From an uncultured Pseudomonadales bacterium (GTDB lineage: Bacteria; Patescibacteriota; Microgenomatia; UBA1400; PJMF01): DNA of 64,000 nucleotides. Both the position numbers and the translations under genes were made by a program. Each line of letters opens with the position of its first letter. Position 1 is the stretch's first letter. The stretch covers positions 20,327-84,326 of the forward strand of contig CAZWWE010000001.1 of the NCBI GenBank assembly GCA_964637295.1, read 5' to 3'. This document shows positions 6,809-34,308 of this stretch, one piece after another. The notes under the pieces are model-generated. The model was not told the DNA's origin and ran no database searches. It saw only the letters and a list, made by a program, of their open reading frames with translations.

Positions 6809-6869
6809 GCCCTTTTATTTTGATGAGAAAGAGCAGTTTTCTGTTATAATCACCTAGTATTTTTAACAA

Positions 6870-6954
6870 GGAGGCATCGCATAGTGGCCAATTGCACAGG
6901 TTTGCTAAACCTGACCCCTTTTGGGGTTCCTGGGTTCAAATCCCAGTGCCTCCG
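6870..6954 (+). tRNA. tRNA-Ser (anticodon GCU), type II with long variable arm
   Basis: Hand-folded cloverleaf. Acceptor ggaggca/tgcctcc. 3-bp D stem. Anticodon stem caggt/acctg with loop ttGCTaa. Variable hairpin cccc-tttt-gggg. T arm ctggg-ttcaaat-cccag. Discriminator G. Confidence 0.8.
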
Positions 6955-7054
6955 CAACAATCGAAAAGTTCTGATAGACCCGTCTAATACCCTCAAATGG
7001 GTTGATGGGGCTTGCTAAATTTTCCTGATTTGAACATTTTTTAGTTTAACAGCC
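6955..7054 (+). repeat. repeat A copy 1 (~100 nt), directly after the tRNA-Ser 3' end
   Basis: caacaatcgaaaagttctgatagacccgtctaatacc...gggttgatggggcttgctaa...tgatttgaacatttttt..aacagcc. The same element recurs at 8713, 13738, 15097 (truncated), 32616, with a remnant at 12665. Confidence 0.85.
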
Positions 7055-7132
7055 GTGTAAGTGAGAAAAAATAAATTATTGACATTTATCTCACTTTATT
7101 TACCATTTTTAATAAAAGGAAGTAAATAATTT

Positions 7133-7579
7133 ATGAAAATTGCAGTAGTATTCTCAACGCTATCTGGAACCACATTATTAATTTCAGAAAATATTGTGAG
7201 TTACTTAAAAGATAGCAACCATAAAGTAAAATTATTTGATGCCATGAGTGTAGATCCGGATGATTTAAAAGACTATGATTTAGTTTTTTTTGGAAGTTCT
7301 ACCTATGGCAATGGCGATTTAAATCCTATTACAGAGTTATTTCTTTCCACAGCAGATTCACAGAGGCATAATTGCAATAATACACGTTTTGCTTTTTTTT
7401 CACTTGGAGACTCCAGTTACCCAAATTTTTCTACAAGTGGTCAATTAAGTAGTGAAAAAATTTCATCAATGAATGGTAATGTTCTTAAACCAATTTTTAA
7501 GATTGATGGATACCCGAATGAGGATACTTTTAAAGGAGTAAGAGAATGGGTTGAAAGTATTATTGAACAACTTAAATAA
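7133..7579 (+). CDS. flavodoxin (short-chain)
   Basis: N-terminal MKIAVVFSTLSGTT phosphate-binding loop and overall flavodoxin layout. 148 aa. Confidence 0.7.
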   Translation: MKIAVVFSTLSGTTLLISENIVSYLKDSNHKVKLFDAMSVDPDDLKDYDLVFFGSSTYGNGDLNPITELFLSTADSQRHNCNNTRFAFFSLGDSSYPNFSTSGQLSSEKISSMNGNVLKPIFKIDGYPNEDTFKGVREWVESIIEQLK

Positions 7580-7607
7580 ATATAATGTGAGTGATAAAAT
7601 CACAACT

Positions 7608-7937
7608 ATGACAGAACCAATCAGTACTCTCACAACTCACCCTCACAAGACTGCCACATTAGTCTCTTATCAAGAAGGATCAGTTGTTAGCCGAGAGATT
7701 GTGAGAACCCCCAAAACTACCATTACCGCATTTGCCTTTGCCAAAGGACAGGGATTGAGTGAACACACCACCCCTTTTACTGCTTTTGTGCAAATACTAG
7801 AGGGGGAAGCAACTATTTCAGTAAATGGAAAAGCTCATCTGGTAAAAGAAGGTGAAGCACTTATCATGCCGGCAAATTCCCCTCACGCATTAAAGGCAAC
7901 CCAGCAATTCAAAATGTTGCTTACTATGATTAAGTAA
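7608..7937 (+). CDS. cupin-domain protein
   Basis: Cupin_2-like core (GxxxxH...EGEA...G....P...PH). I placed the start at the internal Met after the flavodoxin stop. Confidence 0.55.
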   Translation: MTEPISTLTTHPHKTATLVSYQEGSVVSREIVRTPKTTITAFAFAKGQGLSEHTTPFTAFVQILEGEATISVNGKAHLVKEGEALIMPANSPHALKATQQFKMLLTMIK

Positions 7938-8018
7938 GATTGCTAAATAAATTTTCACTGTAGGCGAGTTTAGTTGCACAGATGTTGATAAGTAATAAAA
8001 ATTTTTATTACAACGCAT

Positions 8019-8381
8019 ATGATGAAAAACCTTATTGTTAGACGTATTTATGATGACTTTAGTGAGAACAATTACCATCGAATCTTGGTAGATCGGTTTT
8101 GGCCTCGAGGTATTAGCAAAAAAGACGTTTGTATTGATAGATGGGAGAAGGAAATTGCCCCACCGCGAGAGTTGGTTGTTTGGTTTCATCAAGACAAAGA
8201 GAAAAGGTTTGAAGAATTTGAAAAAAAGTATACAACTTATTTAGAAGACCATGCTAATTTAGTTGCGGATATAACTCGTAGAGAGGGAGGTGTGGCTCTA
8301 ATAACTGCTGTTAAAGATATAGAACACTCCCATATTCCGTCTTTGCTGCGATACATTAAAAACATGCATAATCTTTATTAG
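8019..8381 (+). CDS. DUF488 (YeaO-like) family protein
   Basis: N-terminal IxRIYD and RILVDRxWPRGxxK pattern characteristic of DUF488. Confidence 0.6.
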   Translation: MMKNLIVRRIYDDFSENNYHRILVDRFWPRGISKKDVCIDRWEKEIAPPRELVVWFHQDKEKRFEEFEKKYTTYLEDHANLVADITRREGGVALITAVKDIEHSHIPSLLRYIKNMHNLY

Positions 8382-8618
8382 TGTCATTTACTAACTTGCA
8401 AAGTATGCTCTTCTCAAAATTATTTACTCGCACTGATGGTAGTTATAATTATTCTGACTAGTTCTTTAGCAATGTACTTTTAATCCATAAGAACAGAAAT
8501 TATTGTTGATCTAAATATAACCAACGCTGTCAGCCATTTTTCTTTAGAGGTTATCATTAAAGTGCTTGCACAAATTCCTATTATAAAAAGACAAGCTATT
8601 TCTTACTCAAATTTTAAT

Positions 8619-8711
8619 GCTTCGCAAGGTCAGAAAATGAGCTAAAATGGCTCTTAGACCTATAACTACTTGAGGTAAATGTCGTGCGGTACAAATCCCT
8701 TCGTCCCCGCA
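8619..8711 (+). repeat. repeat B copy a: tRNA-3'-end-like element (T-loop-like ggtacaaatcc + ...ccccgca) lacking a 5' acceptor strand
   Basis: gcttcgcaaggtc..gagctaaaatggctcttagacctataactacttgaggtaaatgtcgtgcggtacaaatcccttcgtccccgca. Near-identical copies at 12570 and 34309. Immediately followed by repeat A. Confidence 0.75.
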
Positions 8712-8712
8712 T

Positions 8713-8809
8713 CAATCGAAAAGTTCTGACAGACCCGTCTAATACCGCTAAATGGGTTGATGGGGCTTGCTAAAATTGCTCGGTTTGAACATTTTTCGTT
8801 TCAACAGCC
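8713..8809 (+). repeat. repeat A copy 2
   Basis: caatcgaaaagttctgacagacccgtctaataccgctaaatgggttgatggggcttgctaaa...ggtttgaacattttt..aacagcc. Confidence 0.85.
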
Positions 8810-8850
8810 TCGTAAGGTGTGGCAAATGCAGTTACAAGGATAATTTCTTT

Positions 8851-9540
8851 CTATTTTTTATTTTTCTTCACTAATTTATCTGCAATGATATTTCCATCTT
8901 CTAGCTCTATAATTCTGTCCGCCACTTGTGCATATTCTGGTTCGTGAGTCACCATGACAATAGTCTGACCTTCTTGATTGAGTTTTTTAAAAATTTCTAA
9001 AATTATTTCTGAAGACTCCGTATCCAAATTAGCAGTTGGTTCATCTGCAAACAAAATTTTGGGGTTGTGAGTGATGGATCTAGCAATACTAACCCGTTGT
9101 TGTTGTCCTCCTGAAAGTTGATTGGGTAAGTTATCTGCTTTATCTTCTAGTCCCACTTTTTTCAAAGCTTCTTCAGCTCTCTCCATTGCAGTTTGCTGAT
9201 CAATTCCCTTCATGATCATCGGTAGAGCTATGTTCTCACTAGCAGTCAAAGAAGGTAGGAGTGCATAATCTTGGAAAATATAACCAATATTATTACGACG
9301 AAAAACAATCTTCTGATCTTCTTTGAGAGCAATGATATCGTTTTCATCGATAGATATTTCTCCAGAGTTCGGTCTGTCAAGTAAACTCATTTGATAAAGA
9401 AGAGTACTTTTACCAGATCCTGACTTACCAGTAATAGCCACAAATTGACCTTCTGGAATGCTAAAGATTAGTTCTTTGAGAGCAGTTAGTTCTGTATCTC
9501 CCATCTGGAATTTTTTTATTAAATTTTTGACTTTAATCAT
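8851..9540 (-). CDS. ABC transporter ATP-binding protein (MacB/LolD-type)
   Basis: Walker A GKSGSGKST. Signature LSGGQQQRVSIAR. Walker B ILFADEPT. Followed by an FtsX-like permease. Confidence 0.85.
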   Translation of the reverse strand: MIKVKNLIKKFQMGDTELTALKELIFSIPEGQFVAITGKSGSGKSTLLYQMSLLDRPNSGEISIDENDIIALKEDQKIVFRRNNIGYIFQDYALLPSLTASENIALPMIMKGIDQQTAMERAEEALKKVGLEDKADNLPNQLSGGQQQRVSIARSITHNPKILFADEPTANLDTESSEIILEIFKKLNQEGQTIVMVTHEPEYAQVADRIIELEDGNIIADKLVKKNKK

Positions 9541-9543
9541 ATT

Positions 9544-10806
9544 TTATTTTCCTAAAATTGAATCGAGAGTGTTTTGTCTAGTTACCAATCTCGCTGGGAT
9601 GAATCCAGATATTAGAGAAGTAATAATTAGAATTATACCCCTAGTTAAAATGTCTCCATTGGTAACAGCCAGTCTTCCTTCTGCGATGGGTAAAACTAAA
9701 GGGTGAATGTCTAAATATGGCTTCAAAAATCCCATAAGAAATAAGCTAGCCAGTAACACTCCAGACAAAGCATAAAACAAAGATTGAATGACATAAGAAA
9801 TCTCAATTGCCTGGGCAGAAATACCAATTCCTTTCAGAATCCCAATATATTTTCTTCTAGTGATGGCATTCACAAAAATAACAATAAAAATCGTAATTGC
9901 TCCCACAATCAAGGCAATAACACCCACCAAGTTACCTAGTAATTTAAAAGTTTTAGTGATATCAGCGCTACTACCAGGCACCGCCTCATCCGCTGTTTGA
10001 ATGGTGATATCTTGATTTTTTTCTAAAATATTTTGTAAATATGATCTGGACTCATTCACTAAATTAGCAGAGGTCAACTTAATGGCAATTTCATTTACAT
10101 CTAAATTCTCTTGATTTTTCATCTCTCTAGCAGCCACATCTACTACAAAAATCCTTGAGTCAATAGTATTATTGCCAGTTCCAACAATTCCTTTAATAAT
10201 AAATTCTTTTTGGGTTTTGCCGACTATGATATTGATCACAGAGCCCACTTCAGCATTTTTTAGTTTTTGTTCTGTACTACTATCAGGCCGATTGGAATAT
10301 TTTTCAAATAAATTTTTACCCACCAAAACTGAGTTAAAATCTGTATCACTTAAATATTCACCCTCAATAACTTTTTTTGATAAATCTGTCACTTCATTCT
10401 CTTGCGCAAAATTTATCCCGGTCAAAACAGCTTGTGAGTTTTCTACGATATCGGTTGTTTCTGTTCGAGTACGATGACCGTATTCAACTTTAGCAGGGGT
10501 AGTTATTCTAAGTGTGTAACTGTCTAAATTTGGAATTGTTTCAACCGCAGAAGTAATATCTTGGGTTTGTTCAATAATTGATTTTTCAGTACTTGGAGTA
10601 ATAAAAAGATCTGCTGAGTAATATTGTTTAAATGAACCAATCATGCCTTGAGCTAGACCTAGCAGTAGTCCTCCGATCAAGACCATGTTTAAAAAGGTTA
10701 AAGACATTACAAAAATAATCAGTAGTGTAGTCCAAGGATTGCTGCGTTTTAAATCCCTGATTGCTAAAAAACGGCCGACAGTAAATGATGCATTTGTTTT
10801 ATTCAT
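9544..10806 (-). CDS. ABC transporter permease, FtsX/MacB-like with large periplasmic domain
   Basis: N-terminal TM, about 250-aa extracytoplasmic domain, C-terminal 3-TM FtsX domain. Adjacent to the ATPase. Confidence 0.75.
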   Translation of the reverse strand: MNKTNASFTVGRFLAIRDLKRSNPWTTLLIIFVMSLTFLNMVLIGGLLLGLAQGMIGSFKQYYSADLFITPSTEKSIIEQTQDITSAVETIPNLDSYTLRITTPAKVEYGHRTRTETTDIVENSQAVLTGINFAQENEVTDLSKKVIEGEYLSDTDFNSVLVGKNLFEKYSNRPDSSTEQKLKNAEVGSVINIIVGKTQKEFIIKGIVGTGNNTIDSRIFVVDVAAREMKNQENLDVNEIAIKLTSANLVNESRSYLQNILEKNQDITIQTADEAVPGSSADITKTFKLLGNLVGVIALIVGAITIFIVIFVNAITRRKYIGILKGIGISAQAIEISYVIQSLFYALSGVLLASLFLMGFLKPYLDIHPLVLPIAEGRLAVTNGDILTRGIILIITSLISGFIPARLVTRQNTLDSILGK

Positions 10807-10819
10807 GTTTTTGTTTTAA

Positions 10820-12055
10820 CTAATCAGTAACAGCTAAAATTTCTAAACCCTCTGGTAACTCGCTAGCGATCTCTGTCTTTGTCAATCCTTGGTAACCCAA
10901 ATTAACTTTTACTAAATCTTCTTGCTTATTTGCCTTTTTTAAATAAGCCTGATTATCTTGATATAAAATTGCTGAATTGGGCACACTCACCACATCATTT
11001 TTTTCATAAGTGTTAATAGTAATGGTAGCTGTCATGCTCGGTTTAATTTCTGATGAAGTGAAATCAGTTAATTCAATACGAACGTCATAAGTGGTTATCC
11101 CAGCAGTTGTAGTACCGATAGTATCAATTGCTGTAATTTTCCCAGTAAAAATAGTTTTTTTATCTGCATCAAATACTATTTGAGCTTCTTGGCCTTCTTT
11201 GAGACGAATGACATCAATTTCACTAGCCTTAGCAATGATCGAAGGTGTTTCTATGTTGCTTACTAATAGAACCGGTTGACCACCCACTTGACTAGCTACA
11301 CCATCGCCAACACTCTTCAATAAATTGACCACTTTCCCGCTGGCGGGAGAGTATACGGTTTTACTTTTTGTGGCATCCAATGCGAGTTTGGCGGAATTAA
11401 CTAATGCTTGAGCAGAAGCAATGTTTTGGTCGGCCTGTTTATACTGATTTTCTGTATTTTCAAATTCTTTGCGAGTTGTAGTTACCGCTGACTTTATGCT
11501 CTCAATTTCAAGTTGTGTATATGGTTCTTTTGTAGTTGGGTTATCACCACTTTCTGCTAAACGATCGTTCATCAAGTTTAAATTATTTTCAGCATCTAAA
11601 AGTGCTTTTTGTTTGACCCACATGGTAGCATCAGCGGTTTCTTTGGCTTGTTTTGCAGTTTGTAAAGCGGTCACAGCTTGTTGATAATTGGTGTTTGCAG
11701 CAGCCTTTTCATCATCAGAGGCTGTGCTCTCAACATAAAAAAGAGGATCACCTTTTTGCACAGTGTCCTGGTTAGAAACAAAAAATTGAGAAATGACTCC
11801 ATTTGTGGGAGAGAATACCTCTGTTTGAGAGGAAGCATTATAAGTGCCTGTTATTTTTACGGTTTCTGATAACTGACTTTTGTGTATAGTGTAAGTCAAT
11901 CTTTCATCAGGCTGACGAAGAATTACTGATCTCAAAATTAGTAAGCCAATTAGTATTGCTAAAATTATTAGGTAGGAGCGATACTTTTTAATGGAATTCA
12001 TATCTAATTTGATTTTGCTAAATTTATTTTTCATATTTTTGTAAAAAGTCTTCAA
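10820..12055 (-). CDS. HlyD/MacA-family membrane-fusion (periplasmic adaptor) protein
   Basis: N-terminal TM. Long coiled-coil hairpin region. C-terminal beta-barrel-like segment. Clustered with the ABC ATPase/permease. Confidence 0.7.
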   Translation of the reverse strand: MKTFYKNMKNKFSKIKLDMNSIKKYRSYLIILAILIGLLILRSVILRQPDERLTYTIHKSQLSETVKITGTYNASSQTEVFSPTNGVISQFFVSNQDTVQKGDPLFYVESTASDDEKAAANTNYQQAVTALQTAKQAKETADATMWVKQKALLDAENNLNLMNDRLAESGDNPTTKEPYTQLEIESIKSAVTTTRKEFENTENQYKQADQNIASAQALVNSAKLALDATKSKTVYSPASGKVVNLLKSVGDGVASQVGGQPVLLVSNIETPSIIAKASEIDVIRLKEGQEAQIVFDADKKTIFTGKITAIDTIGTTTAGITTYDVRIELTDFTSSEIKPSMTATITINTYEKNDVVSVPNSAILYQDNQAYLKKANKQEDLVKVNLGYQGLTKTEIASELPEGLEILAVTD

Positions 12056-12461
12056 AAATGCTTACTACTGTTTCTAAATCCTTTGCTGAAATCGGAGCTA
12101 AAATTTGATTAGCTTTTTGTTCCATTCTTTTCAAAATTGAAGCCAAATGCTCTTCGCCATCACTAGTTAAAGATAAAAGAATTAAGCGACGATCATTCTT
12201 GTCATTTTTCCTAGAAATAAACTTGGATTTGATTAATCTATCAGTCATTTGAGTCAATGCTGATGGGGACATTTGCAATCTTAATGCTAGTTCACTGGCA
12301 GTAATAGGTGAATTTTCCTTAATGGTTTTTAATGTCTGCACTTGCAACATGGTTGGAATATTATCTTCATCACTATCATCCAATGTTTGATCTAGTATCT
12401 TTCTCATTTTCAGCATGGTATTGAAAAACTTAGAAAAATCTTTTTGTTGATTTGTTTTCAT
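12024..12461 (-). CDS. MarR-family transcriptional regulator
   Basis: Winged-HTH MarR layout (…ASELALRLQMSPSALTQMTDRLIKSKFISRKNDKNDRRLILLSLT…). First gene of the efflux operon. Confidence 0.75.
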   Translation of the reverse strand: MKTNQQKDFSKFFNTMLKMRKILDQTLDDSDEDNIPTMLQVQTLKTIKENSPITASELALRLQMSPSALTQMTDRLIKSKFISRKNDKNDRRLILLSLTSDGEEHLASILKRMEQKANQILAPISAKDLETVVSIFEDFLQKYEK

Positions 12462-12569
12462 ATTAGGATTGGTTTAAAATTATTTCATGTAATTAATATT
12501 TTATGTCATAAAGTAATTTTGTCAAGACTGTTTTTTTAAAACATAACTCTTGAATTAGTTTAGAAGTGA

Positions 12570-12664
12570 ATCTTCGCAATACCCCGAATGTAAGTTAAAA
12601 TGGCTCTTAGACCTATAACTACCAGAGGTAAATGTGTTGCGGTACAAATCCCTTCTTCCCCGCA
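12570..12664 (+). repeat. repeat B copy b
   Basis: atcttcgcaa...taaaatggctcttagacctataactaccagaggtaaatgtgttgcggtacaaatcccttcttccccgca. Followed at 12665-12679 by tcctaagatttgaac, a remnant of the 3' part of repeat A. Confidence 0.75.
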
Positions 12665-12880
12665 TCCTAAGATTTGAACTATAGTGACAGTCACTCAAAA
12701 TATTTTTTTCGTATATCTTGATTAGTCCTCATTTTAATGTTATAATGACGTTACAAACGCACATTAAAATCATGTGGTTTGTGAATGAATCATAGTAAAT
12801 TTATGTATGCTGTTTATTATGATTCATCCACAAGCTATTTGCAGCTCAAAGGATGAAAATCTTTTTGTAGGAGGGCCAAG

Positions 12881-13198
12881 ATGGCCAAGTATTTTTATAA
12901 CGGAAATGGGGATGCACTCCCCACCTCTTATGTAGAGGATGTTCAACAAGAATACAAAGGCACCACCATGGATGGAGATGCGGTCTACCACGTGACGTTT
13001 TTTGACGCACGTCGCCGCAAACACATCTCCTACGATACGGTTGTTTACCGTGGAGAACACGAGTATATCCCTGGCAGTGGTCACGAGCGTGATCATGGCA
13101 GTGAGAATATTTCTCGTTGGGACTCCGGCAATCGTGTAACTTGGCAAGAAGCGCTTCGCAGTCACACTCGCGATTTACTGCCATATAGCAGACGCTAA
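12881..13198 (+). CDS. orphan small protein in a visibly G+C-richer patch
   Basis: 105-aa ORF (MAKYFYNGNGDALPTSY...). Composition is clearly richer in G/C than the flanks. Both strands are open here, so strand is uncertain. I chose plus because a GC-rich hairpin follows the stop. Confidence 0.4.
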   Translation: MAKYFYNGNGDALPTSYVEDVQQEYKGTTMDGDAVYHVTFFDARRRKHISYDTVVYRGEHEYIPGSGHERDHGSENISRWDSGNRVTWQEALRSHTRDLLPYSRR

Positions 13199-13207
13199 TT
13201 GTCAAAA

Positions 13208-13232
13208 GGGGTCAGCCCGAAAGGGCTGACCC
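13208..13232 (+). terminator. GC-rich hairpin gggtcagccc-gaaa-gggctgaccc after the orphan gene
   Basis: Perfect 10-bp stem with GAAA tetraloop. No clean U-tract follows. Confidence 0.45.
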
Positions 13233-13262
13233 AATTCAAAACAAATAGCTTATAATCAAAGT

Positions 13263-13631
13263 ATGTTATTAAAAGAAAACTACTCCTTTATTCATTTTCC
13301 AGTTACCAACAAAAATCCTGAAGAAATACTTTCTCTTTATTCTGAAGAATTCGCAATCAATAAACCAGAAACAATAACTCAGATAAAAACGATATTTGCT
13401 AATGCACTTCGAGATTATTTATCAGGAAAAATTGGAGAGTGGGAGCTAGGATCTCTTGCCTTTTCTTTGTCAGCTGATAAACAATTATCCTCCATAGTTA
13501 AACAAGATCAAAAACTTAGTAAGATTATTTTTGAATGTGTTGATATCAAATGGTTATCTGAAGGAAAAAATTTTGATCAATATAAAAAAGAATTACAAAA
13601 TTTCTTAAATTCTATTACTAGTAATAAATAA
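13263..13631 (+). CDS. hypothetical protein; possible immunity/partner protein of the preceding orphan gene
   Basis: 122-aa ORF with no recognisable motif. Confidence 0.45.
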   Translation: MLLKENYSFIHFPVTNKNPEEILSLYSEEFAINKPETITQIKTIFANALRDYLSGKIGEWELGSLAFSLSADKQLSSIVKQDQKLSKIIFECVDIKWLSEGKNFDQYKKELQNFLNSITSNK

Positions 13632-13699
13632 GTAAAGCTTTTTTATACTGTCCCATTCGTCCCATTTCAAGATATAATTCTTGTTATAAAAGTTACATT

Positions 13700-13737
13700 T
13701 ATAACGACGCACGGGTTCCAGACCCATCTGCTCCGCA
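13700..13737 (+). repeat. repeat C copy 1: tRNA-3'-end-like element ending gctccgca
   Basis: tataacgacgcacgggttccagacccatctgctccgca. Recurs at 15058. Immediately followed by repeat A. Confidence 0.7.
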
Positions 13738-13835
13738 ACGATCGAAAAGTTCTGACAGACCCGTCTAATACCGCTAAATGGGTTGATGGTGCTTGCTAAT
13801 TTTCCTTAGTTAGAACATTTTTCGCTTTAACAGCC
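13738..13835 (+). repeat. repeat A copy 3
   Basis: acgatcgaaaagttctgacagacccgtctaataccgctaaatgggttgatggtgcttgctaa...ttagaacattttt..aacagcc. Confidence 0.85.
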
Positions 13836-13873
13836 GGTGTAACAAATTAAACCGAGAGTTGTAATCATCTCAA

Positions 13874-14856
13874 ATGAGACTACCAAAGAATTGCGTTTCT
13901 TTATTAGAAAAAGCTCGAGACTCAGCAACGCAAGCAATTTCTAAATATAATGACCCAAGAAGCATATTTAGAACGGGGAACTTCTCGGTTCTCATGATTA
14001 TAGCTTGGACAGCATTGCTTCATGCCTATTTTGAAAAAAATAAAACTAAGTACTTTTACAAAAAGAATCAATACAGATATCAAATAATTGATGGCGAAAA
14101 AAAGCTTGGGATTTGCAAAAGTGCTTGAATGAAATTTTTGATGAAAATAATCCCATACGTAAAAATATCGAGCTCTTCATAAGGTTAAGAAATAAGATTG
14201 AGCATAGAAATTTACCCGGTCTTGATCCTGAACTTGTCGGTGAATCACAGGCACTTGTTTTAAACTTTGAAGAATGGATAGCTCAAGAATTTGGTGAGAA
14301 ATATTCATTATTGGAAACTATTTTTGTTCCAATTCAATTAACTTCTGCTCAGAGATCTCTTCCAAAAACTAAAATTGAAGAAAATGTTCTCAAGTTCATT
14401 CAAACTTATAGGAATGTTCTTGAGACAAATGTCATAAATTCGCTAAAGTACACTTTCAAAGCTTATCTCGTTCCCAAGATTGGTAACCACAGAACCTCAT
14501 CAGATATGGCTATTGAATTTGTAAAATATGATGAAAGCAATCCTGAGGAGATAGAAAAATACAACAAGGCTATTGTTGCAATAAAAGAAAAAGTTATTCC
14601 TGTTGCAAACCTGAATCACTACAAACCAACTCAGGTGTTAGAGAAATTGGTAGAACGTGATTTTAGCAAAAACCAACACTGGCACGTGACTATGTGGAAA
14701 AAGTATAAGGTCGGGCCAGAACCAAATGCGATTAATAAATCAAACTGCAAATCAGAATACTGTATTTATGATAGCGCTCATTCTGATTATTTATACACTG
14801 ATGCTTGGATAGACATGCTCATTGCAGATCTTCAAGGAAAAATGAATCTCTTGTAA
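13874..14856 (+). pseudogene. HEPN-containing Abi_2 (AbiD/AbiF)-like abortive-infection gene, frameshifted at an A7 homopolymer
   Basis: Two overlapping ORFs (13874-14128 frame 2; 14113-14856 frame 1) join at gaaaaaaag (~14095). The downstream part carries an Rx4H HEPN motif (LRNKIEHRN). Combined length ~325 aa fits Abi_2. Confidence 0.45.
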
Positions 14857-15057
14857 AGAGAAAGAATTATTTATCCTGGAAATATAATAACTAATGATTG
14901 CGCAAAACAAAACACTCCTTTTTTATAAGGTCACATTTGTCTCATTTTTTCTCCGTTAGCCTGGTGATACAATTGATCATTGACGCGACTTTCTAGGTCT
15001 CATTTGTCCCGTTTTTGCTAAAATTACTCTAGAAGCCAGATTTTGGGAATGGGACAG

Positions 15058-15096
15058 CTATAACGACGCACGGGTTCCAGACTAGGATGCTCCGCA
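15058..15096 (+). repeat. repeat C copy 2
   Basis: ctataacgacgcacgggttccagactaggatgctccgca. Confidence 0.7.
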
Positions 15097-15135
15097 ACAA
15101 TCGAAAAGTTCTGATAAACCCGTCTAATATCGTTA
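15097..15135 (+). repeat. repeat A copy 4 (5' part only, truncated)
   Basis: caacaatcgaaaagttctgataaacccgtctaatatcg, then unrelated sequence. Confidence 0.7.
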
Positions 15136-15239
15136 AAAGTTTGATTTATTAGTTTTCATATAGAAATTTGATAAATGGTGAATAATAAAGTATCTAAAAA
15201 CTATATGTCTGTGTTATTATAACTAAGAAAAATATATCT

Positions 15240-16211
15240 ATGAAAACATTTGTTGTTATACCCACTATTAGAAATCTCGATATTCTGAAAAGTTGGGCAG
15301 AGGAGCTGGCTGCATGCCACCTTATTGTTATCGAAGATCATGATAATAAGGAGATTAGAATTCCAGAAGTTAAGTGTTTGAGTATTCAGCATTATTCCAG
15401 AATCGATATCAAAAAAGAATTTGGAAATGATTCTTGGATCTTTCCTCAACAATCTTCAGCTATTAGATCGTTTGGATTTTGGAAAGCATACTCACAAAAA
15501 GCTGATCTTATTGTTACTTTCGACGACGATTGCGCTCCAAAAACACTTGATTTTATTAGAAAACATCAAGAAAATATTGCGTCAACATTTTCACACTCAT
15601 GGATACCAACGTATCCCTATCGAAAGTATTTGTTCACGAGAGGATTTCCTTACACGAATAGAAAAGAAATGCCGACAAAACTTAGTCACGGACTCTGGAC
15701 CAATGTTCCTGACCTTGATGGTATGACACAAATCATGAAATTTGATAAACCTGTAACAAATCTACCAGACGTTTTATACCAATTTCCTAGAAGTATGTAT
15801 TTTCCAATGAGCGTAATGAATCTTGCCTTCACGAGCGACGTTGCGGTATTACTTTATCAATTATTAATGGGCTATAGTATAAAAGATGGTAAATACTGGG
15901 GCTACGAAAGATTTGATGATATTTGGTCAGGTATCTTTATGAAAAAGGTGTTTGATCATTTAGAATTTGCTGCCGTCAGTGGCTCTCCCTATGTTTATCA
16001 TTCTAGAGCTTCAAGCATGTTTGCAAATTTACAAAAAGAAGCACGAGGCATTGAGCTAAACGAAACTCTCTGGAAAGAAGTAGACGCTATTAAGCTTAAA
16101 TCAAATACTCCTAAAGAGTGTTACATTGAAATTGCTAAAAAAATGAGTAAAATAAATCCATATTTTAAAACCACTACCAAAGCAATGCAGATATGGGCAG
16201 AACTATTTTAA
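15240..16211 (+). CDS. RGP (reversibly glycosylated polypeptide) / GT75-family glycosyltransferase
   Basis: The N-terminus VVIPTIRNLDILKSW...HLIVIEDHD...TFDDDC closely parallels the RGP/UDP-arabinopyranose-mutase family signature (IVIPTIRNLDFLEMW...HLIIVQDGD...DDDC) as I recall it. Confidence 0.65.
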   Translation: MKTFVVIPTIRNLDILKSWAEELAACHLIVIEDHDNKEIRIPEVKCLSIQHYSRIDIKKEFGNDSWIFPQQSSAIRSFGFWKAYSQKADLIVTFDDDCAPKTLDFIRKHQENIASTFSHSWIPTYPYRKYLFTRGFPYTNRKEMPTKLSHGLWTNVPDLDGMTQIMKFDKPVTNLPDVLYQFPRSMYFPMSVMNLAFTSDVAVLLYQLLMGYSIKDGKYWGYERFDDIWSGIFMKKVFDHLEFAAVSGSPYVYHSRASSMFANLQKEARGIELNETLWKEVDAIKLKSNTPKECYIEIAKKMSKINPYFKTTTKAMQIWAELF

Positions 16212-16874
16212 AAATTTAGTTGAAAATGTGATAGATTGATATTGATACATTTGCTATTTGATTGTTTTGGCTTAAAAAAAATATCAGTTCTTCTTTTGTT
16301 TGCTAATAGCTTAATATTTGTCATATAAAACATGTGAAACTAACATTTGCTGTTTTTCCAGCTAAAAGAAGCGCTGTTTTTTACGGCAGCAAGTCTTAAA
16401 AAATAATCAAATATAATTCCAATTTCTTTTCGTCCTCACAAATGTCGCAATATGGAAACCAACCCACTTGTACTAATAAAGATCTGTCGCCTTAGAAAGG
16501 CTTCATTAGTTTGAGTAAAGAAAGAATCTATCCAATCCTAAAAAAGTATTGTGCAAAGTTAAAACTAGCTTTACCTGCTACGTCTACGATTAGAAAAAAA
16601 TAATTACTAAGAATCATCTTTCCTTTTCCAAAGCTAACTACTGATAGCACAATCCAAATAGAAAACAACTAGATCTGAGCAAGAGATCTAGAGTCAAGTA
16701 CGCTCCAAAACCAGAGATTGGCGGTCATGTTGAATTAGATACAATTGAAATTAGAATCACCAATGTTAAACGCTATAACAGAAATAGCCATTGATATCAA
16801 ATTAAAAATTGCCTATGCTCAAACTTTCAAAATTTATTTTTTGATGCACTTCAAATTAATACAAATGCGAAAGT

Positions 16875-18962
16875 TTAAGCAACCTCAGTTCTTGATGCAG
16901 GATGGTGACAATTGATACATATACTTTTTGAAAAAATATACCATGGTCTTTCATCTTTGGGTGATTTTTGTTTATTTAATATCAATCTTTTAGTTTTTTT
17001 TAAAACCATTGTCAACAAGTATTTGTACATTTGATATCGATAAAAGTCACCAGTAAAATGCATGAATACTACAGGTGTTATCGATTTTCCCAATAGTTTA
17101 TGTTCGGGAAAAACTTGATATCTATTTTTATCTAAACGAAAACTAGGAATAATTTCTGCTATCAATACGTGAAGCGATTGTTCAATAATAGGAAACACTA
17201 ATTTTAATTCTATGTTAGCATGATGATCATAATCACGTCTTTGTTCGTTTAATTGCAGTATTAATTTAATAAAATCATCAATTTTTTTTACTGAAATATG
17301 TCTATGAAAAAGTGGTAAAGAAAACATTAGTAATCCTGAGTTGAGATGCTCAACTGTATGAGGCCGTTTTAATATGAAATCTGTTTCGGGAAAAGAAATA
17401 ACTGAAAAATTAGCGTAATCAGATAAAAAACCCATTTTGTTAGATTTGTTTTTTAGCCATTCTAAAATTTCTGTTGGTTTTTCAACAAAAAGCGTATCAC
17501 TATCAATTAATATTGACTTCCCGTTTTTTTCAAAAAAGAGAGGAATAAAAAACTTTTTACCTGACCAACCATAATTAAAAAATGCTTTTGCATAAGAAAA
17601 ATTTTTAATTTCTGGCAAGATCTTATCTTCAACTTCTCTTATTTTAAGTATTGAAATTCTAACCCTCTTAGTAAAGAGTTTTTCTATTATAAATTTATTG
17701 AAATGATTAAGACTAAAATCAAAATATAAATAATAGCGCAATCCTGGGATGAAATGGTTCAAGCTCAACATTGAAAAAATCGATATAAAAAAGTCTCTTT
17801 TTGAGATCACATAATATATTTTTGCCTCAGAAAATGAACTTGGTTTAGAAAGATAACTTTTTTCAAAAATTATCTGTAATAAAATTGCAAACTCACTGAT
17901 TATTCTTGCAATAAAAAGAAAAACGGAGAATCTCACAACAAAAAAGGTTGCAACTATTTTTGATTTATAAAACAGTTTCTTTAATTGATAAAAATCTGCT
18001 TGAATAAAATTCTTTTTTATTTGTAGTTTATAAAATATACTGAGTATATTTATCAAAAAAAGTGAATTATGTTTCAGTGGATATTTCGCTCTGTTTTTAC
18101 CAATACTATCAGCAAGTTTCAAATTATTTAACCATTTGTCGTAGTAAATAGACTCAGGATTGTTCCAAGGTTTGTCAATTTTCTCAGAACTAGCAAAGTG
18201 AAGTACTGGAGCTTTGCTTGAGACTATTCGTTTTTGAGAATCACTACTAGTTAAATTATAACAATAATTAAAAAGCATCGGAAGTTTTTGCCACTTCTTG
18301 GTAAAAACTAAATTAAATGCACCTTGCATTCCGTAGGCAGAAATTTGAGCAAACCGAGCCGAAGTATTAATTAACCTTTTGTGTAAAGATAAATTGATAA
18401 TATCTGTTGATAAAGCAAATACTCCAGCATTAAACGCAGTTTGATTCAAGTCATATTCAATCTTAAGCTCTTTCAATAATTGAAGACTAGAGGACATATC
18501 CAACTGAAGATTCTTTCTGAGAGTCGATCTTTTAATTCCAGAAATTATTTCAGTGCGAGATAAAAATTGATTTTCAAGTTTAGGGAATGCAATATCGGAA
18601 ACAGCAGCAAAACCCTTAACTTTAGTAAGATAATCTAAGCTGCCTTGAATAATAATGTCACTTTCTATAAAAACGACTTGTTTCCATTTCTTAAAATAAG
18701 GAGTGAAAACATCAAAAGCATTAAGGTAAACTGACGGAAACCACTTTGTACTAGGATGATCGCGATGCTGGAGCTGTTTAACTATTATGTTGTGAGACCT
18801 AAACCATTTTAACTCCTCCTTAGGTGCTTTGTTAACAATAAACAGGAAGTCTCCGTCCCAACCGCCAAAGTGATATGCGCTCGAAAAAAGTTGTTTTACC
18901 TGAGAAAGGTAATTACCGTCACCCATAGTAACTAGCAATTTATCTTTGGCAACATTAGGCAT
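16875..18962 (-). CDS. two-domain GT8-family (LgtC/glycogenin-like) glycosyltransferase
   Basis: 695 aa, very AT-rich. The N-half has ...IESDIII... plus NAGVFAL. The C-half has a second GT8-like ...LIDSDTLFV... plus HLNSGLLMF (DxD + NSG motifs twice). Confidence 0.6.
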   Translation of the reverse strand: MPNVAKDKLLVTMGDGNYLSQVKQLFSSAYHFGGWDGDFLFIVNKAPKEELKWFRSHNIIVKQLQHRDHPSTKWFPSVYLNAFDVFTPYFKKWKQVVFIESDIIIQGSLDYLTKVKGFAAVSDIAFPKLENQFLSRTEIISGIKRSTLRKNLQLDMSSSLQLLKELKIEYDLNQTAFNAGVFALSTDIINLSLHKRLINTSARFAQISAYGMQGAFNLVFTKKWQKLPMLFNYCYNLTSSDSQKRIVSSKAPVLHFASSEKIDKPWNNPESIYYDKWLNNLKLADSIGKNRAKYPLKHNSLFLINILSIFYKLQIKKNFIQADFYQLKKLFYKSKIVATFFVVRFSVFLFIARIISEFAILLQIIFEKSYLSKPSSFSEAKIYYVISKRDFFISIFSMLSLNHFIPGLRYYLYFDFSLNHFNKFIIEKLFTKRVRISILKIREVEDKILPEIKNFSYAKAFFNYGWSGKKFFIPLFFEKNGKSILIDSDTLFVEKPTEILEWLKNKSNKMGFLSDYANFSVISFPETDFILKRPHTVEHLNSGLLMFSLPLFHRHISVKKIDDFIKLILQLNEQRRDYDHHANIELKLVFPIIEQSLHVLIAEIIPSFRLDKNRYQVFPEHKLLGKSITPVVFMHFTGDFYRYQMYKYLLTMVLKKTKRLILNKQKSPKDERPWYIFSKSICINCHHPASRTEVA

Positions 18963-19425
18963 AAATTATTTTTCTCAAAATTTTTACAATGAAGACCTAT
19001 CTATAAATTAAACATTTTCAAGTTACCATATTCTTGACGAAGTATAACATATAAAGCGATGATCAATGATCATATCATGAAACAAGTATTTTAATCTAAT
19101 TCAACATATAATAAACAACGCATAATTGAACTACTTTTAACTACTGTGTTATAAAGTTCCAATTTTTAGTGATATGTAATATAATTTAGCGACGGTTTAC
19201 CAGAAAGAATTTCTTCACCTGAAGTTGGCAGGGTAATCGAAAATTTAGAAGTCGAAACCGTTGCAAAAGTTTTAAACCAACAGCTTGCAAATGAACCCAC
19301 AAGTATTCACTGCCAAAAAAATGTACTTTGCGATTGGCGCATCGCTGCTATAGACATCATCACCGCTTATTATCAACATTTAAGAACAAAGCTCACTAAC
19401 TAAAAATTAAATGTTATATTAATTT

Positions 19426-20385
19426 GTGCATAAAAACTCAGTTCTATCAACCGAAGCTAGCAATTTTCTCAAAGGTTTAGCGATCCTTTTAGTCATATTG
19501 GTGCACACCCTCTCTAGTTTTCAAGAATCAGTGTTTGTCGGTTTTCATGGACGCTTTCAAACTTTAGCCGTTTTGATCGATAAAATCTGTCGATTTTCAG
19601 TGCCTTTATTCGTGGCTCTTTCTGGTTACGGTCTCAGTCAAAGATACTTCCAAAAACCACTCCATTTTGGCGAATTTTTGCGTCATCGACTATGGAAGCT
19701 AATCCCCAAATATTTACTCTGGTCTGCAATTATGATTTTGGCCGTCAAAATCATTCCTGCTTGGCACTCGGATCGCCCTAGTCCGCCTTTATCATTACTT
19801 TTGCTTTTGGGCTATGCTGACTATCATTTATATTTTGTGCCGATGATTTTGCAACTTTATTTATTATTTCCCATCTTGCGCTTTTTTTATGGAAGATGGC
19901 CCAATTTAACTTTATTTTTAGCTTTATTAATTCAAATTATGTGGTTTGCCAGCTTTAGTTATCAACAAAAATTACCTTTTAATTGGTCGATTTTTGCGGC
20001 TGATCACGAGCAATATCTGTGGGCCAGTAATTGGATTTTTTATTTTGTTTTGGGCATGGCTCTGCCAAGAATTTTAATTTGGCTCAGACAAAAAACCTTT
20101 GTTTGGAATTTAATTCTAATAACCTGCCTACTAATTGGCTGGCTCGCTTTAAGCATCAATGCGATTGCTCGTATTCAGATGGGCATTGATCCTTTATTAG
20201 TTTTGCGTTTTACTCAGTACAGCATGATTGCTTGGGTAAGTTTAGGCATTATTAGCTTGAGTTTTTTTGCCAGTCAATTAAAAACTGTGCCCAAAATCAT
20301 GCTTTGGCTTGGTCAAAAATCTTATGATCTCTATCTAAGTCACACCCTTTTACTTCGCCTCGTTTTTAGCTTCTTTGTTTGGTAA
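19426..20385 (+). CDS. acyltransferase-3 family membrane O-acyltransferase
   Basis: About 10 TM helices. N-terminal LKGLAILLVILVHT pattern typical of the Acyl_transf_3 (OatA/OafA-like) family. Confidence 0.7.
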   Translation: MHKNSVLSTEASNFLKGLAILLVILVHTLSSFQESVFVGFHGRFQTLAVLIDKICRFSVPLFVALSGYGLSQRYFQKPLHFGEFLRHRLWKLIPKYLLWSAIMILAVKIIPAWHSDRPSPPLSLLLLLGYADYHLYFVPMILQLYLLFPILRFFYGRWPNLTLFLALLIQIMWFASFSYQQKLPFNWSIFAADHEQYLWASNWIFYFVLGMALPRILIWLRQKTFVWNLILITCLLIGWLALSINAIARIQMGIDPLLVLRFTQYSMIAWVSLGIISLSFFASQLKTVPKIMLWLGQKSYDLYLSHTLLLRLVFSFFVW

Positions 20386-20434
20386 AATACAAATTGTTTC
20401 AAGACTAGTTTCACTTGGTAGTCTTTAAAAAAAT

Positions 20435-21265
20435 ATGAGAAAAAAAATTAAATTAGTGGCCTTGTTTTTATTACTTTTAGTTTTTGGTGTTGCCGGGTTT
20501 TTATATAGCAAAAAAAAGCCCTCCAAGCAAACACCGAATGACCAAGCTGTGCCTAATCAAGTCGCACAAAAAAAAACAGAATCAACTTATTTAATTGACG
20601 GCTTTCCACTAGAAGAAATTCCTTTGTATCAGCTCAACAAAATCAGTTCAAGCAAAATTTTCATCAATACTGATCCAAAAAACACTTCTGTTTTCGACGA
20701 AAGTAATTTTGCTTATTACAATGTCGTCTTTGATTCAAATGCTAGTCAAGAAGAATTGCTTAATTACTATCGCGGCTTAATGACTCAAAAATTGGAGGAG
20801 GGCTCTAGTCAAGAAACAGTAAGAGGCTCTATCGGAGCCTATAAGGTGTCAATTAGCCATTACGGAGATCAAACTGCTTATTTACAAGTGCATTTACCCG
20901 ATTATCAAGATGCTCGCTTGACTCAATATTTTACTGAATTTCCCAAGATTTTTGAGGTAAATGAAACTCTGCTTAGTGAAGCTGAAAAATCTTATGGACT
21001 GCTCAATCAAAAAGGTGGAGAACTTGAATTTACTAAATATTTTACTGTAATTGACAGTGGTGATCAAAATCAAGACGGGCAAGACGATGTGGACGAGTTT
21101 GCTCTGTTGCTCAAAGAAGCTCAAGAAAAAAATCAAGCTAAAACCAATTACACTTTTGATGAAAAAACTGCTACTATGCAGTGGTCAGAACAAAACTTTA
21201 ATATTACCCTGGCTTTTGCCAAAAATCATCAGCGCCTCTACCTAATGCTACGTCAAAATATCTAG
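20435..21265 (+). CDS. hypothetical membrane-anchored extracellular protein
   Basis: N-terminal TM/signal anchor (LVALFLLLLVFGVAGFL), then a hydrophilic domain. No recognisable motif. Confidence 0.45.
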   Translation: MRKKIKLVALFLLLLVFGVAGFLYSKKKPSKQTPNDQAVPNQVAQKKTESTYLIDGFPLEEIPLYQLNKISSSKIFINTDPKNTSVFDESNFAYYNVVFDSNASQEELLNYYRGLMTQKLEEGSSQETVRGSIGAYKVSISHYGDQTAYLQVHLPDYQDARLTQYFTEFPKIFEVNETLLSEAEKSYGLLNQKGGELEFTKYFTVIDSGDQNQDGQDDVDEFALLLKEAQEKNQAKTNYTFDEKTATMQWSEQNFNITLAFAKNHQRLYLMLRQNI

Positions 21266-21482
21266 AAAGACCAAAAACAATGATAGAAATAGGTGGAAAA
21301 AAACCAACATTGGAACAAGCCACGAAGGAAGAAATTATTGCTGCTTATCAACAACTTTGTGCCGGTGATAAGAGCAACAACAAAGCAATTGAAATACTCA
21401 TTGAGAGGTTTGGAGAAGAAGCGGTTATTGAAGTCATGCCCAAGATCTTTAAATAGATGAAGAGTTAAAAAAAATTTGATTA

Positions 21483-21567
21483 GGAGAGATCGCATAGTGG
21501 CCGAGTGCAGCGGTTTACTAAACCGCCATAGCGCAAGCTATCCAGGGTTCGAATCCCTGTCTCTCCG
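21483..21567 (+). tRNA. type II (Ser-class) tRNA with apparent anticodon ACU
   Basis: Acceptor ggagaga/tctctcc, discriminator G. 3-bp D stem. Anticodon stem gcggt/accgc with loop ttACTaa. Long variable arm. T arm caggg-ttcgaat-ccctg. Confidence 0.65.
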
Positions 21568-21871
21568 CAAAGATCTGAAGCTTAATAAAACCGATAGCAC
21601 TTGTTAAAAGTAAAGTGTTTCTCATTCTTTCGCTAAACTTACTTCCTCAAGAATAACATCGTCTATCTCAATAGTTTCTTTTGTGAAATCGCGAATCTCT
21701 TTAGATAAAGATATTTTAAAAACAAAATTATTTAAAGTAGCCAAGTTAGATAAAACTTCTCCAGTGATAGTGAAAATGCCTACAATCGTTGACGAAACAA
21801 AAATACTTGTTGCTGAAAAGTATGGTAAAAATATTTCTCCAATTCTCCTGTGTATATCTGCTCTCTACAAA

Positions 21872-22957: not shown

Positions 22958-23606
22958 TTTTTAAAATTAATAAATAAAACATCATTCCATAAATAAAATC
23001 TTCCAGTGGAATGGTCAAAATCATTAAGCCACTTTTATAAATTGGATTATAAGTCACAATTGGCAAAGCTGTTAAATAATAATTAAAAATTAAAGTCATG
23101 AAAACAGTAAACAGCAAAGCCAAAAATTCTGCTTTGCTTAAATTCAATAAATCTTTTAGCAAGATCAACATCAGCAACAACATACTAGCGGAGTACCACC
23201 ACGATTGACTCAAGGCAAATAACAATAAAATTGCTAAAACTAGATACAAAATAAATAAGCACAAGTGATTTTTACTTTGCCAAGCTTTTTGGCTCAAATT
23301 TTGCCAATTTAATAAAGGCAAATTTTCCAAAAAAGTTAATAAACCAAAAGGCACAGTGATAAAAAACAAAATTTCTTCGATGGGCAGTTTAAAAATTTTT
23401 GGCAAAGGCAAAACATAAAAATCATTAAAAAACCACCAATGATTGCTAACCAAAGCATCATTGAGCACAAAAAGCAAAGTTACTGGCAAAATTTTGGGTA
23501 AAAGCTTGATTGGCAAAGTCATTTTTCTATAAAAAAGTTTGGCTACTAAAATTGAGCCCAAAACTAAAATATGAAAGAATAAATAAGAAAAATTGTTGAA
23601 TTGCAT
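22923..23606 (-). CDS. lycopene cyclase domain protein (fused CrtYcd-type)
   Basis: Multi-TM protein with two PxEE-type motifs (LPIEEILFFITVPF and TIPLEDFIYGMMF), diagnostic of the heterodimeric-type carotenoid cyclase domain. Confidence 0.55.
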   Translation of the reverse strand: MQFNNFSYLFFHILVLGSILVAKLFYRKMTLPIKLLPKILPVTLLFVLNDALVSNHWWFFNDFYVLPLPKIFKLPIEEILFFITVPFGLLTFLENLPLLNWQNLSQKAWQSKNHLCLFILYLVLAILLLFALSQSWWYSASMLLLMLILLKDLLNLSKAEFLALLFTVFMTLIFNYYLTALPIVTYNPIYKSGLMILTIPLEDFIYGMMFYLLILKSVYGKKTINFS

Positions 23607-23610
23607 ATTT

Positions 23611-30560: not shown

Positions 30561-30661
30561 TCGGTTGCTGAATGGGTCAAAAGGCTAGTTCCCTCACCAT
30601 TTCTCTTGATTTAATTTGTTAATCAAAACAATTTTAACAAAAAACTGTTAAAATGTCAGTC

Positions 30662-32532: not shown

Positions 32533-32615
32533 GGAGGTGTCGCATAGTGGTCAATTGCACACGCTTGGAAAGCGTGAGCCGCAAGGCTTCGCAGGTTCGA
32601 TTCCTGTCACCTCCG
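32533..32615 (+). tRNA. tRNA-Ser (anticodon GGA), type II
   Basis: Acceptor ggaggtg/cacctcc, discriminator G. 3-bp D stem. Anticodon stem cacgc/gcgtg with loop ttGGAaa. Variable hairpin. T arm with ttcgatt loop. Confidence 0.8.
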
Positions 32616-34295: not shown

Positions 34296-34308
34296 AAAAT
34301 TGGTTTTA

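Follow-up and report, generated by a model that had tools for sequence, protein, structure and literature searches.

Two parts of a 64-kb stretch of DNA from an ultra-small bacterium (Patescibacteria), analysed here over its whole length and referred to as the window, are likely a composite island (positions 6870-15143 and 32533-34401). It would consist of tandem cassettes that have no recombinase gene of their own, are bounded by attP-like attachment-site arms, belong to a family of large serine recombinase (LSR) elements and were probably mobilised in trans. The integrative-element family with these arms is widespread in the Microgenomates (Patescibacteria). The mobile unit has the form A-cargo-B/C, where repeat A is the left arm and repeat B or C the right arm. 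Whole units recur elsewhere at 90-100% identity, behind an intact tRNA-Ser gene or behind other cassettes, and in a BLASTN comparison of the window with related loci the homology between contexts stops exactly at CCGCA junctions. An earlier note on this DNA had proposed either site-specific insertions made one after another at the 3' end of a tRNA gene, with att-like scars left behind, or an integron-like cassette array. The recurrence of the units, the breaks at CCGCA and the linkage of an LSR bear out the former proposal. The latter holds as an analogy only, given the lack of IntI and of an attC-like fold and the presence of multigene cassettes on either strand.

The comparison set comprised about 140 related loci from Patescibacteria (Microgenomates), of which the 51 fetched with the A motif (L002-L052) were mapped together with the window, giving 52 sources. 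Comparing the locus across this set returned identical cassettes in different contexts, one example being the unit with the MarR and MacAB genes (window 8707-12664). This unit is present at 90-100% identity in L014, L015, L022/L029/L030, L024 and L028, with homology running from the junction before A (8707) to the final base of B (12664). On its left side, five different neighbours were found: two are intact tRNA-Ser(CGA) genes (L014 and L028), and the others are a repeat B in the window and two further degenerate tRNA-like arms (one in L015/L024, the other in L022/L030). L028 and L022/L030 have the right flank of the unit in common but not the left one, i.e., the insertion is polymorphic. The left arm of the window's copy, A2, is 100% identical to L014 from the junction onward, and its specific bases (ATCAATC...) start immediately past CCGC in both sequences, with the intact tRNA-Ser(CGA) preceding in L014. 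Given that only about 5 nt are common at this junction, it is not an assembly join; Logan contigs also match the window junctions at 100% identity. The flavodoxin unit presents a similar picture, as window 6864-8210 is 97.6% identical to L025, where a different tRNA-Ser gene (ACU) lies upstream, and the first left arm of the window, A1, has the same sequence as the copy behind that gene, downstream flank included.

The third cassette of the array was found at yet another tRNA-Ser gene. ENA contigs L059-L064 match window 12641-13744 at 99.3% identity, and in these contigs the unit 12665-13736 sits directly behind tRNA-Ser(ACU), where ...ccctgtctctccgca is followed at the junction by tcctaagatttgaac. 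After the C arm, these contigs read gatcgtgaagc instead of A, which resembles the trailer of the window's own empty tRNA-Ser(ACU), aagatctgaagc. Because the unit stands directly behind a tRNA gene there, the stretch at 12665 is the left arm of a separate cassette, here termed A' (TCCTAAGATTTGAACTATAGTGAC...). The earlier note had taken this stretch for a remnant of A; it is not detectably A, and the A' arm recurs in other genomes, including L066. Judging from these sequences, cassette 3 has moved between two tRNA-Ser sites.

Altogether, 24 complete units with an A arm and a B or C arm were found in the 52 sources. They measure 1.25-6.8 kb, hold one to nine genes on either strand and lie in a single orientation, with no mixed orientation of cassettes in any of the mapped sources. 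None of the 24 contains an LSR, another recombinase or phage-gene debris. Their cargo includes alanine racemase, LD-carboxypeptidase (the same cassette in three loci), NUDIX, HIT and 2-phosphosulfolactate phosphatase genes, as well as a GNAT acetyltransferase with a hydrolase, a sigma factor with a MacB pump, AAA_13 with DUF2130, and a DUF4143 ATPase.

Searching the window with a 30-mer core of repeat A yielded five matches (6960, 8715, 13741, 15100 and 32621), against none in 100 shuffles. The four copies listed in the earlier note are hence confirmed, but its count was incomplete, as the fifth copy at 32621 lies behind tRNA-Ser(GGA). Full copies of A are about 107 nt long and 79-84% identical to one another; the first 34 nt are the most invariant part, which fits a putative recombinase half-site. 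Repeats B and C end precisely where A, or unrelated DNA, starts, both in the window and in about 50 loci, and all repeats have one orientation. Two further statements of the earlier note were upheld: A is always preceded by a tRNA-like 3' end, with B, C or a tRNA-Ser gene ending exactly at its start, and the junction is conserved, with the core CYCCGCA at all seven window sites. The tRNA-like part of B and C, as aligned to real tRNA-Ser genes, is confined to the last ~30 nt (T-loop and acceptor end). They are not complete tRNAs, since ARAGORN made no call and Rfam returned nothing even at E<=1.

All junctions and all 14 empty tRNA-Ser sites have CCGC in common. The terminal junction of B3, the right arm of the cassette behind tRNA-Ser(GGA), reads ...ctccgcCAaagtc (ctccgcCAaag) and retains the original trailer including the encoded CCA, and the occupied tRNA-Ser(GGA) now reads ctccgcAAtaattg (ctccgcAAtaa). 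Hence, we infer that the exchange point falls within CCGC.

A promoter-like motif, CTTCGCAA-N16/17-TAnnAT, is retained in 27/27 distinct copies of B, with a spacer variable in sequence and fixed in length, and points at the junction. In B1, a promoter scan reported it as TTCGCA-N16-TAAAAT, followed by a degenerate tail resembling a tRNA 3' end. This motif may be a working outward promoter. Most copies of A are followed, ~15-35 nt past their end, by another motif, GTAAG-N14-17-(G)TTATAAG(G)A, whose spacer is variable in sequence (e.g., window 8836-8846 and 13866-13874). It was considered as a promoter and rejected, as it does not fit the sigma-70 consensus and was missed by the promoter scan. 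We also observed short GC-rich stretches at cassette borders (L059 1129-1230; upstream of A in L015/L024, with L015 at ~170-256; L051 ~13025-13090) in genomes of otherwise ~35% GC. Examples are gcgctcgctgcgggggcgggcgcggcgagcgcc, with repeated GAAGCG/GCGAGC, and these stretches may be another recurring border element.

The distribution of A follows tRNA-Ser genes. In the 51 loci and the window, A starts right after ...CCGC in 34 of the 48 tRNA-Ser genes, with anticodons GCU (13), CGA (7), UGA (6), GGA (5) and ACU (3), and no copy was found behind any non-Ser tRNA. Every tRNA-Ser gene occupied by A is still called by ARAGORN, so that the gene is left intact. The trailers of the 14 empty genes are unrelated sequences, often terminator hairpins, and at the outer ends of the arrays the terminal right arms adjoin host DNA other than A. 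Given that A follows neither these arms nor the empty tRNA-Ser genes, the repeat is part of the element, not of the host. A 27-mer from A was found in 26 stretches of GTDB species representatives, mostly Woese-, Pace- and Microgenomates-type Patescibacteria metagenome-assembled genomes (MAGs), and in 25 further stretches from JGI and ENA metagenomes. The exact 27-mer had no match in IMG/VR, and the DNA of a B-A junction had none among GenBank phages.

Clustering the open reading frames (ORFs) of the loci revealed one LSR family in 15 of the 51 A-motif loci, with fragments in two more. A recombinase is therefore present in related loci, beside A and inside elements bounded by A and C. The protein has ~435 aa with Resolvase, Recombinase and Zn_ribbon_recom domains, and members among the loci are 72-100% identical to one another. 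Its gene is on the strand opposite to A, convergent with it at a distance of 0.4-1.4 kb, and the interval holds variable small genes (DUF2726, an S24 CI/LexA-like gene or ThsB-TIR). In loci fetched later by an LSR look-up, the gene adjoins A in eight of nine cases, the ninth contig ending first. Protein clusters with 62% identity or more to the LSR number over 120, and the few with a source name come from Woese-, Levy-, Shapiro- or Roizmanbacteria or from the Patescibacteria group. This LSR is presumably the enzyme that catalyses the insertions.

Complete LSR elements were found by look-ups with 10-kb flanks. In L066-L069, the order is tRNA-Ser(GGA), a unit A'-cassette-C, the element A-263 aa-LSR-476 aa-136 aa-ParB/methylase-...-HTH-...-SduA_C-MerR-C, and the flank. 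The L066 element is complete, bounded by A and C, 11.4 kb long, and includes ParB-methylase, HTH and SduA_C (Shedu-type) defence genes. L073/L074 have a five-cassette array behind tRNA-Ser(GGA), in which one cassette of ~2.4 kb (A-155 aa-LSR-89 aa-C) holds the LSR, and in L019/L033 the LSR lies beside a weak terminase-like gene and ParB-methylases, in longer, incomplete elements. No primase or helicase was seen in L066-L074. A single-sequence search of IMG/VR with the LSR returned no match, whereas a profile search returned 67 viral contigs with relatives of 42-72% identity. In 17 of these 67 contigs, the 3' end of the LSR gene is closely followed by a tRNA gene on the other strand (Ser 8, Gln 4, Glu 2, and Asp, Asn, Arg and Trp 1 each). 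These neighbouring tRNA genes suggest that the LSRs of this clade are integrases with which Patescibacteria (pro)phages target tRNA 3' ends. The closest GenBank phage integrases are ~25% identical to it.

Turning to the layout of the window, the array is anchored by tRNA-Ser(GCU) (6870-6955, + strand; ARAGORN and Rfam), an occupied attachment site, on the attL side. Repeat A1 (6956-7062, +; nhmmer E=8e-34), the P'-like left arm of cassette 1, begins at the base directly after the ...CTCCGC of this gene. Cassette 1 has flavodoxin, cupin and DUF488 genes as its cargo (7133-8381, +; Pfam) and ends with the P-like right arm B1 (8613-8710, +; nhmmer). Cassette 2 extends from the left arm A2 (8711-8817, +; nhmmer) to the right arm B2 (12566-12664, +; nhmmer) and encodes, on the minus strand, a MacB-type ABC ATPase, an FtsX permease, an HlyD-type fusion protein and MarR (8851-12461; Pfam). 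Cassette 3, recognised by its recurrence in L059/L060/L062, comprises the A' arm and two orphan ORFs (12665-13641, +) and the right arm C1 (13642-13736, +; nhmmer). A Pfam scan of both orphan ORFs (12881-13198 and 13263-13631) returned no match. Upstream of both, at 12779-12833, lies a 21-nt inverted repeat (90% complementary, 13-nt loop). In cassette 4, the left arm A3 (13737-13843, +; nhmmer E=1e-29) and the right arm C2 (14997-15095, +; nhmmer) bound a DUF3644 gene (13874-14856, +; Pfam). This is the gene described as frameshifted in the earlier note, and indeed positions 2-68 and 73-182 of the DUF3644 profile are divided over two overlapping ORFs. The C2 junction is reproduced in the independent Logan contigs L053-L056.

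Beyond cassette 4, repeat A4 (15096-15143, +; nhmmer, model positions 1-49 only) ends after 48 nt and is followed by a glycosylation block with RGP-type, GT8 and acyltransferase genes (15240-21265, listed without a strand; Pfam). At its right border, neither a B or C arm nor CYCCGCA was found between 15143 and 21483, and exact-protein look-ups for the block returned only contigs identical to the window. Given the lack of a recognisable right arm, the block cannot be demonstrated to be a cassette and may be either a cassette or native DNA. Of the five cassettes proposed earlier, four are thus bounded by arms, whereas the glycosylation block is not. The tRNA-Ser(ACU) gene at 21483-21568 (+; ARAGORN and Rfam), previously taken as the end of the array, is a separate target, unoccupied in this strain: its trailer is aagatctgaagc and not A, and the same tRNA carries cassette 3 in L059. 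The swings in composition reported for the cassettes are weak, with GC contents of 0.344-0.364 against 0.358 for the window, the glycosylation block (0.324) being the sole departure. The second occupied attachment site is tRNA-Ser(GGA) (32533-32616, +; ARAGORN and Rfam), followed by a single cassette that as a whole spans 32617-34401. It consists of the left arm A5 (32617-32715, +; nhmmer), a gene for a DUF6829 protein (32829-34295, +; Pfam) and the terminal right arm B3 (34305-34401, +; nhmmer).

The proposed explanation is that each element, with a P' arm on its left (A or A') and a P arm on its right (B or C), would undergo conservative site-specific recombination with the end of a tRNA-Ser gene. 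The target would be the conserved ...CYCCGC end of any such gene, i.e., the 3' strand of the acceptor stem, the discriminator G and the next base. The body of the tRNA would be kept intact and the trailer alone replaced, including the encoded CCA where present. As the tRNA end would remain a target after insertion, each new insertion would displace older cassettes downstream, leaving attP-like internal B-A junctions, with the newest cassette next to the tRNA gene and older ones moved outward. The recombinase would be supplied in trans by autonomous relatives with the same arms, such as the 11.4-kb element, the longer incomplete elements and the 2.4-kb LSR cassette; we infer such mobilisation because cassettes without an LSR recur as exact units. 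The shuffling between GCU and ACU sites would be accounted for if internal B-A joints also recombined with tRNA-Ser genes elsewhere on the chromosome. From the promoter-like motif of B, transcription would pass the junction and enter the next cassette or, in a circular form, run through A into the element's own genes.

Several observations weigh against this explanation. No recombinase or transposase was found in the 64-kb window, where ORFs of at least 100 aa were Pfam-scanned or are ribosomal proteins, and tblastn with the linked LSR returned no match, in accordance with the earlier note's statement that no integrase or recombinase gene is present. Given the frameshift in cassette 4 and the truncation of A4, the array is, at least in part, in decay and not active. 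The only non-self-complementary dinucleotide within CCGC is CC, which leaves the exact crossover ambiguous, and a hand comparison of consensus sequences revealed weak dyad symmetry in the putative half-sites. Such symmetry at the attP-like junction was set aside as a guide, as it amounts to a weak common AAG(A) 14-17 nt either side of the centre, too weak for use. Moreover, conservation extends over 107 nt in A and 100 nt in B, well in excess of the ~50 bp needed by characterised serine integrases. Finally, the terminal B of L073 (2992-3088, -) has a 24-nt tail that matches the 3' end of the neighbouring tRNA-Ser(GGA) (L073 17771-17854) without a difference, unlike internal copies of B, whose tails are diverged. 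In some events the exchange could have occurred further 5', or gene conversion could be responsible.

Some of these observations would also be expected if the cassettes were inert leftovers of full-length LSR elements that suffered internal deletions and never moved as units. The lack of an LSR in the window, the frameshifted DUF3644 gene and the truncated A4 agree with this, and decay of integrated elements is common, e.g., among tycheposon remnants (10.1101/2020.12.28.424599). As an account of the whole array it is nonetheless unlikely: the same compact two-armed units occur in up to five contexts at 90-100% identity, including near-identical strains, independent deletions would not yield the same unit repeatedly, and none of the 24 complete cassettes (0/24) holds fragments of an LSR or of phage genes. 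For parts of the array, given the DUF3644 gene, A4 and the lack of a local LSR, inert remnants are possible. Homologous recombination after DNA uptake, with A, B and the tRNA end as homology anchors between which cargo is swapped without a site-specific enzyme, would suit conserved (80-90%) arms that, at ~100 nt, exceed what a serine integrase should require, and a locus that encodes no recombinase. We consider it very unlikely, as breaks fall exactly at CCGCA and are not scattered within A or B, the bases specific to A2 begin at the first position past the core, and the left neighbours (tRNA, B and other arms) have no extended homology to one another. In addition, cassette 3 lacks A but still relocated between two tRNA-Ser genes, with no more than a 5-nt core shared on its left, and A is tightly linked to the LSR.

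The position of A directly behind a tRNA gene, where it would be co-transcribed, and the promoter-like motif of B aimed at the junction raise the question of whether A is a functional RNA or the native 3' trailer of tRNA-Ser, with the copies behind B and C being duplicated tRNA-like transcription units. Neither a covarying structure nor a described family was found for A or B: RNAalifold on 51 copies of A gave -0.55 kcal/mol, a double hairpin drawn by hand for A had no covariation above that of shuffles, the transcribed part of B showed none, and A matched no Rfam family at either gathering or E-value thresholds. Furthermore, 14 tRNA-Ser genes and the terminal junctions have no A, and sequence variants of A move along with the cargo, which makes a role as RNA or trailer extremely unlikely. 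A related candidate, that B gives rise to a pseudo-tRNA or minihelix RNA transcribed from a promoter of its own, was rejected as well, since similarity is solid in the last ~30 nt only and RNAalifold on 17 copies revealed no covariation. As for a true integron or a relative of one, with a tyrosine recombinase and a folded attC, the array of unrelated cassettes with a recurring separator and no recombinase inside them does look the part. However, no Phage_integrase or IntI was found in the window or the annotated related loci, A has no hairpin symmetry, cassettes hold 1-9 genes on either strand, and the anchor is a tRNA gene instead of attI, so that this reading is almost certainly wrong. A composite island of LSR-family cassettes is hence the explanation we retain.

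Beyond this explanation, the Microgenomates may possess a general cassette exchange system, in which an LSR supplied in trans by (pro)phage-like relatives moves cassettes anchored at tRNA-Ser genes across sites and species and the right-arm promoter of one cassette drives the next. This broader proposal is tentative, and we rate its chances as somewhat on the low side.

Other features of the loci are reported here as observations. Known or candidate anti-phage defence genes are frequent as cargo, both beside the LSR and in small cassettes (SduA_C in L066 2140-3519; ThsB_TIR in L070 11313-11873; AAA_13 with DUF2130 in L003 567-4130; DUF3644 in window 13874-14856). A tRNA-Ser(ACU), with A at position 34, is kept beside the normal tRNA-Ser(GCU) in several Microgenomates genomes (window 21483-21568; L025 2839-2924; L031 3768-3853; L032 3111-3198; L086 15917-16004). 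In bacteria, A34 is unusual in any tRNA but tRNA-Arg(ACG), and its presence here suggests inosine modification or an odd decoding arrangement. After tRNA-Ser(ACU), the window contains a carotenoid-type cluster (21872-25958, -) with a polyprenyl synthetase, a lycopene cyclase domain protein, a phytoene/squalene synthase and a CrtI-like amine-oxidase, a pathway not expected in a reduced Patescibacteria genome. A SAM (S-box) riboswitch at 30498-30615 (-), scoring 45.1 bits against an Rfam gathering threshold of 44.4 bits, lies upstream of an S-adenosylmethionine synthetase gene (29109-30230, -), which is an ordinary arrangement. The GenBank records of L002, L006-L008, L013, L015-L017, L019-L021, L024, L025 and L027 are titled 'uncultured Pseudomonadales bacterium'. 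These titles conflict with the gene content and with the names of near-identical proteins, and the records are probably mislabelled.

The genomes of Patescibacteria are tiny, and the gain and loss of accessory genes in them is poorly understood; arrays of this kind appear to be a common route. Their cargo includes efflux pumps, cell-wall enzymes and defence genes, with the same cassettes found across species and tRNA-Ser sites. A large LSR clade using the last bases of tRNA genes would widen the known target range of serine integrases, and a serine integrase whose target is short, defined and found throughout the genomes of the group could serve as a genetic tool in these organisms, which are very hard to manipulate. 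Repeats A, B and C can also be used to delimit variable islands in Microgenomates MAGs, and explain contig breaks there.

Among known systems, the staphylococcal cassette chromosome (SCC) offers a resemblance in working only. There, an LSR (Ccr) inserts at the extreme 3' end of a conserved gene, which stays active, and tandem composite islands are formed, in which short direct repeats separate the units and ψSCC units without ccr rely on Ccr in trans (PMC10581047). The use of an LSR, the 3' end of a conserved gene, tandem units and the lack of a recombinase in some of them are alike. In the islands described here, an LSR was likewise found in related loci, the target gene is intact, and the units have a common core and a single tandem orientation. 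However, SCC targets rlmH and is defined by the Ccr clade, whereas here the target is the 3' end of tRNA-Ser, with five isoacceptor genes per genome as alternative sites, and the best phage matches of the LSR are ~25% identical. The repeats of SCC measure ~18 bp, against conserved arms of ~100 nt here, and the present units are much smaller than SCC (1.3-7 kb), with Patescibacteria as hosts.

Tycheposons of Prochlorococcus also insert cargo at tRNA genes, as tandem elements split by partial tRNA copies, with degenerate remnants building variable islands (10.1101/2020.12.28.424599). Most of them (910/937) use tyrosine recombinases and few use LSRs, each tRNA has its own integrase, the repeats are true partial tRNAs of ~40 nt, and many elements carry replication modules (10.1101/2020.12.28.424599). 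The tRNA-anchored tandem elements split by partial tRNA copies are alike, although the resemblance of B and C to a tRNA is limited here to their last ~30 nt. Unlike tycheposons, a single LSR clade serves all tRNA-Ser isoacceptors, exchange would take place at the last few bases of the tRNA, and most units have no integrase at all. Neither a tyrosine recombinase clade nor replication modules were found, the recombinase being an LSR and L066-L074 having no visible primase or helicase. A Prochlorococcus-type island was also rejected for the window because the organism is a Patescibacterium, and tycheposons are kept as an analogue only.

A further analogue is found in the cis-mobilisable elements (CIMEs) at the att sites of ICESt1/ICESt3 in Streptococcus thermophilus, which are flanked by att sites, lack recombination genes, lie in tandem with an autonomous element and can be mobilised by its integrase. 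While such att-flanked units without recombination genes in tandem are alike, CIMEs depend on tyrosine integrases, target the fda gene and are associated with conjugative elements, and to our knowledge they are neither as numerous nor as compact as the cassettes described here. Among integrases acting at tRNA-Ser, that of φRSM is reportedly a small resolvase-like serine recombinase without Recombinase and Zn-ribbon domains that targets the 3' end of the gene. A tyrosine integrase with the 3' end of a tRNA-Ser gene as its target is described for mv4 (10.1101/2023.11.06.565760). Within the literature library searched, Patescibacteria or the candidate phyla radiation (CPR) combined with serine recombinase, prophage, or tRNA, integrase and genomic island returned no description of the present system. 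We know of no recombinase-less cassette arrays formed by either mv4 or φRSM.

Integrons likewise gather unrelated cassettes that have no recombinase of their own and may be expressed from an upstream promoter. They differ in that neither IntI with attI/Pc nor a folded single-strand attC was detected among the window ORFs, the annotated related loci and the aligned copies of A, and that the present cassettes are multigene, on both strands and anchored at a tRNA gene. The array belongs to neither the SCC nor the tycheposon family, since target, recombinase clade and arm structure differ. If the broader proposal of a general exchange system is true, that system would be a functional analogue of integrons derived from a different enzyme family, with a serine integrase clade directed at tRNA genes, in a phylum with almost no known mobile-element biology.

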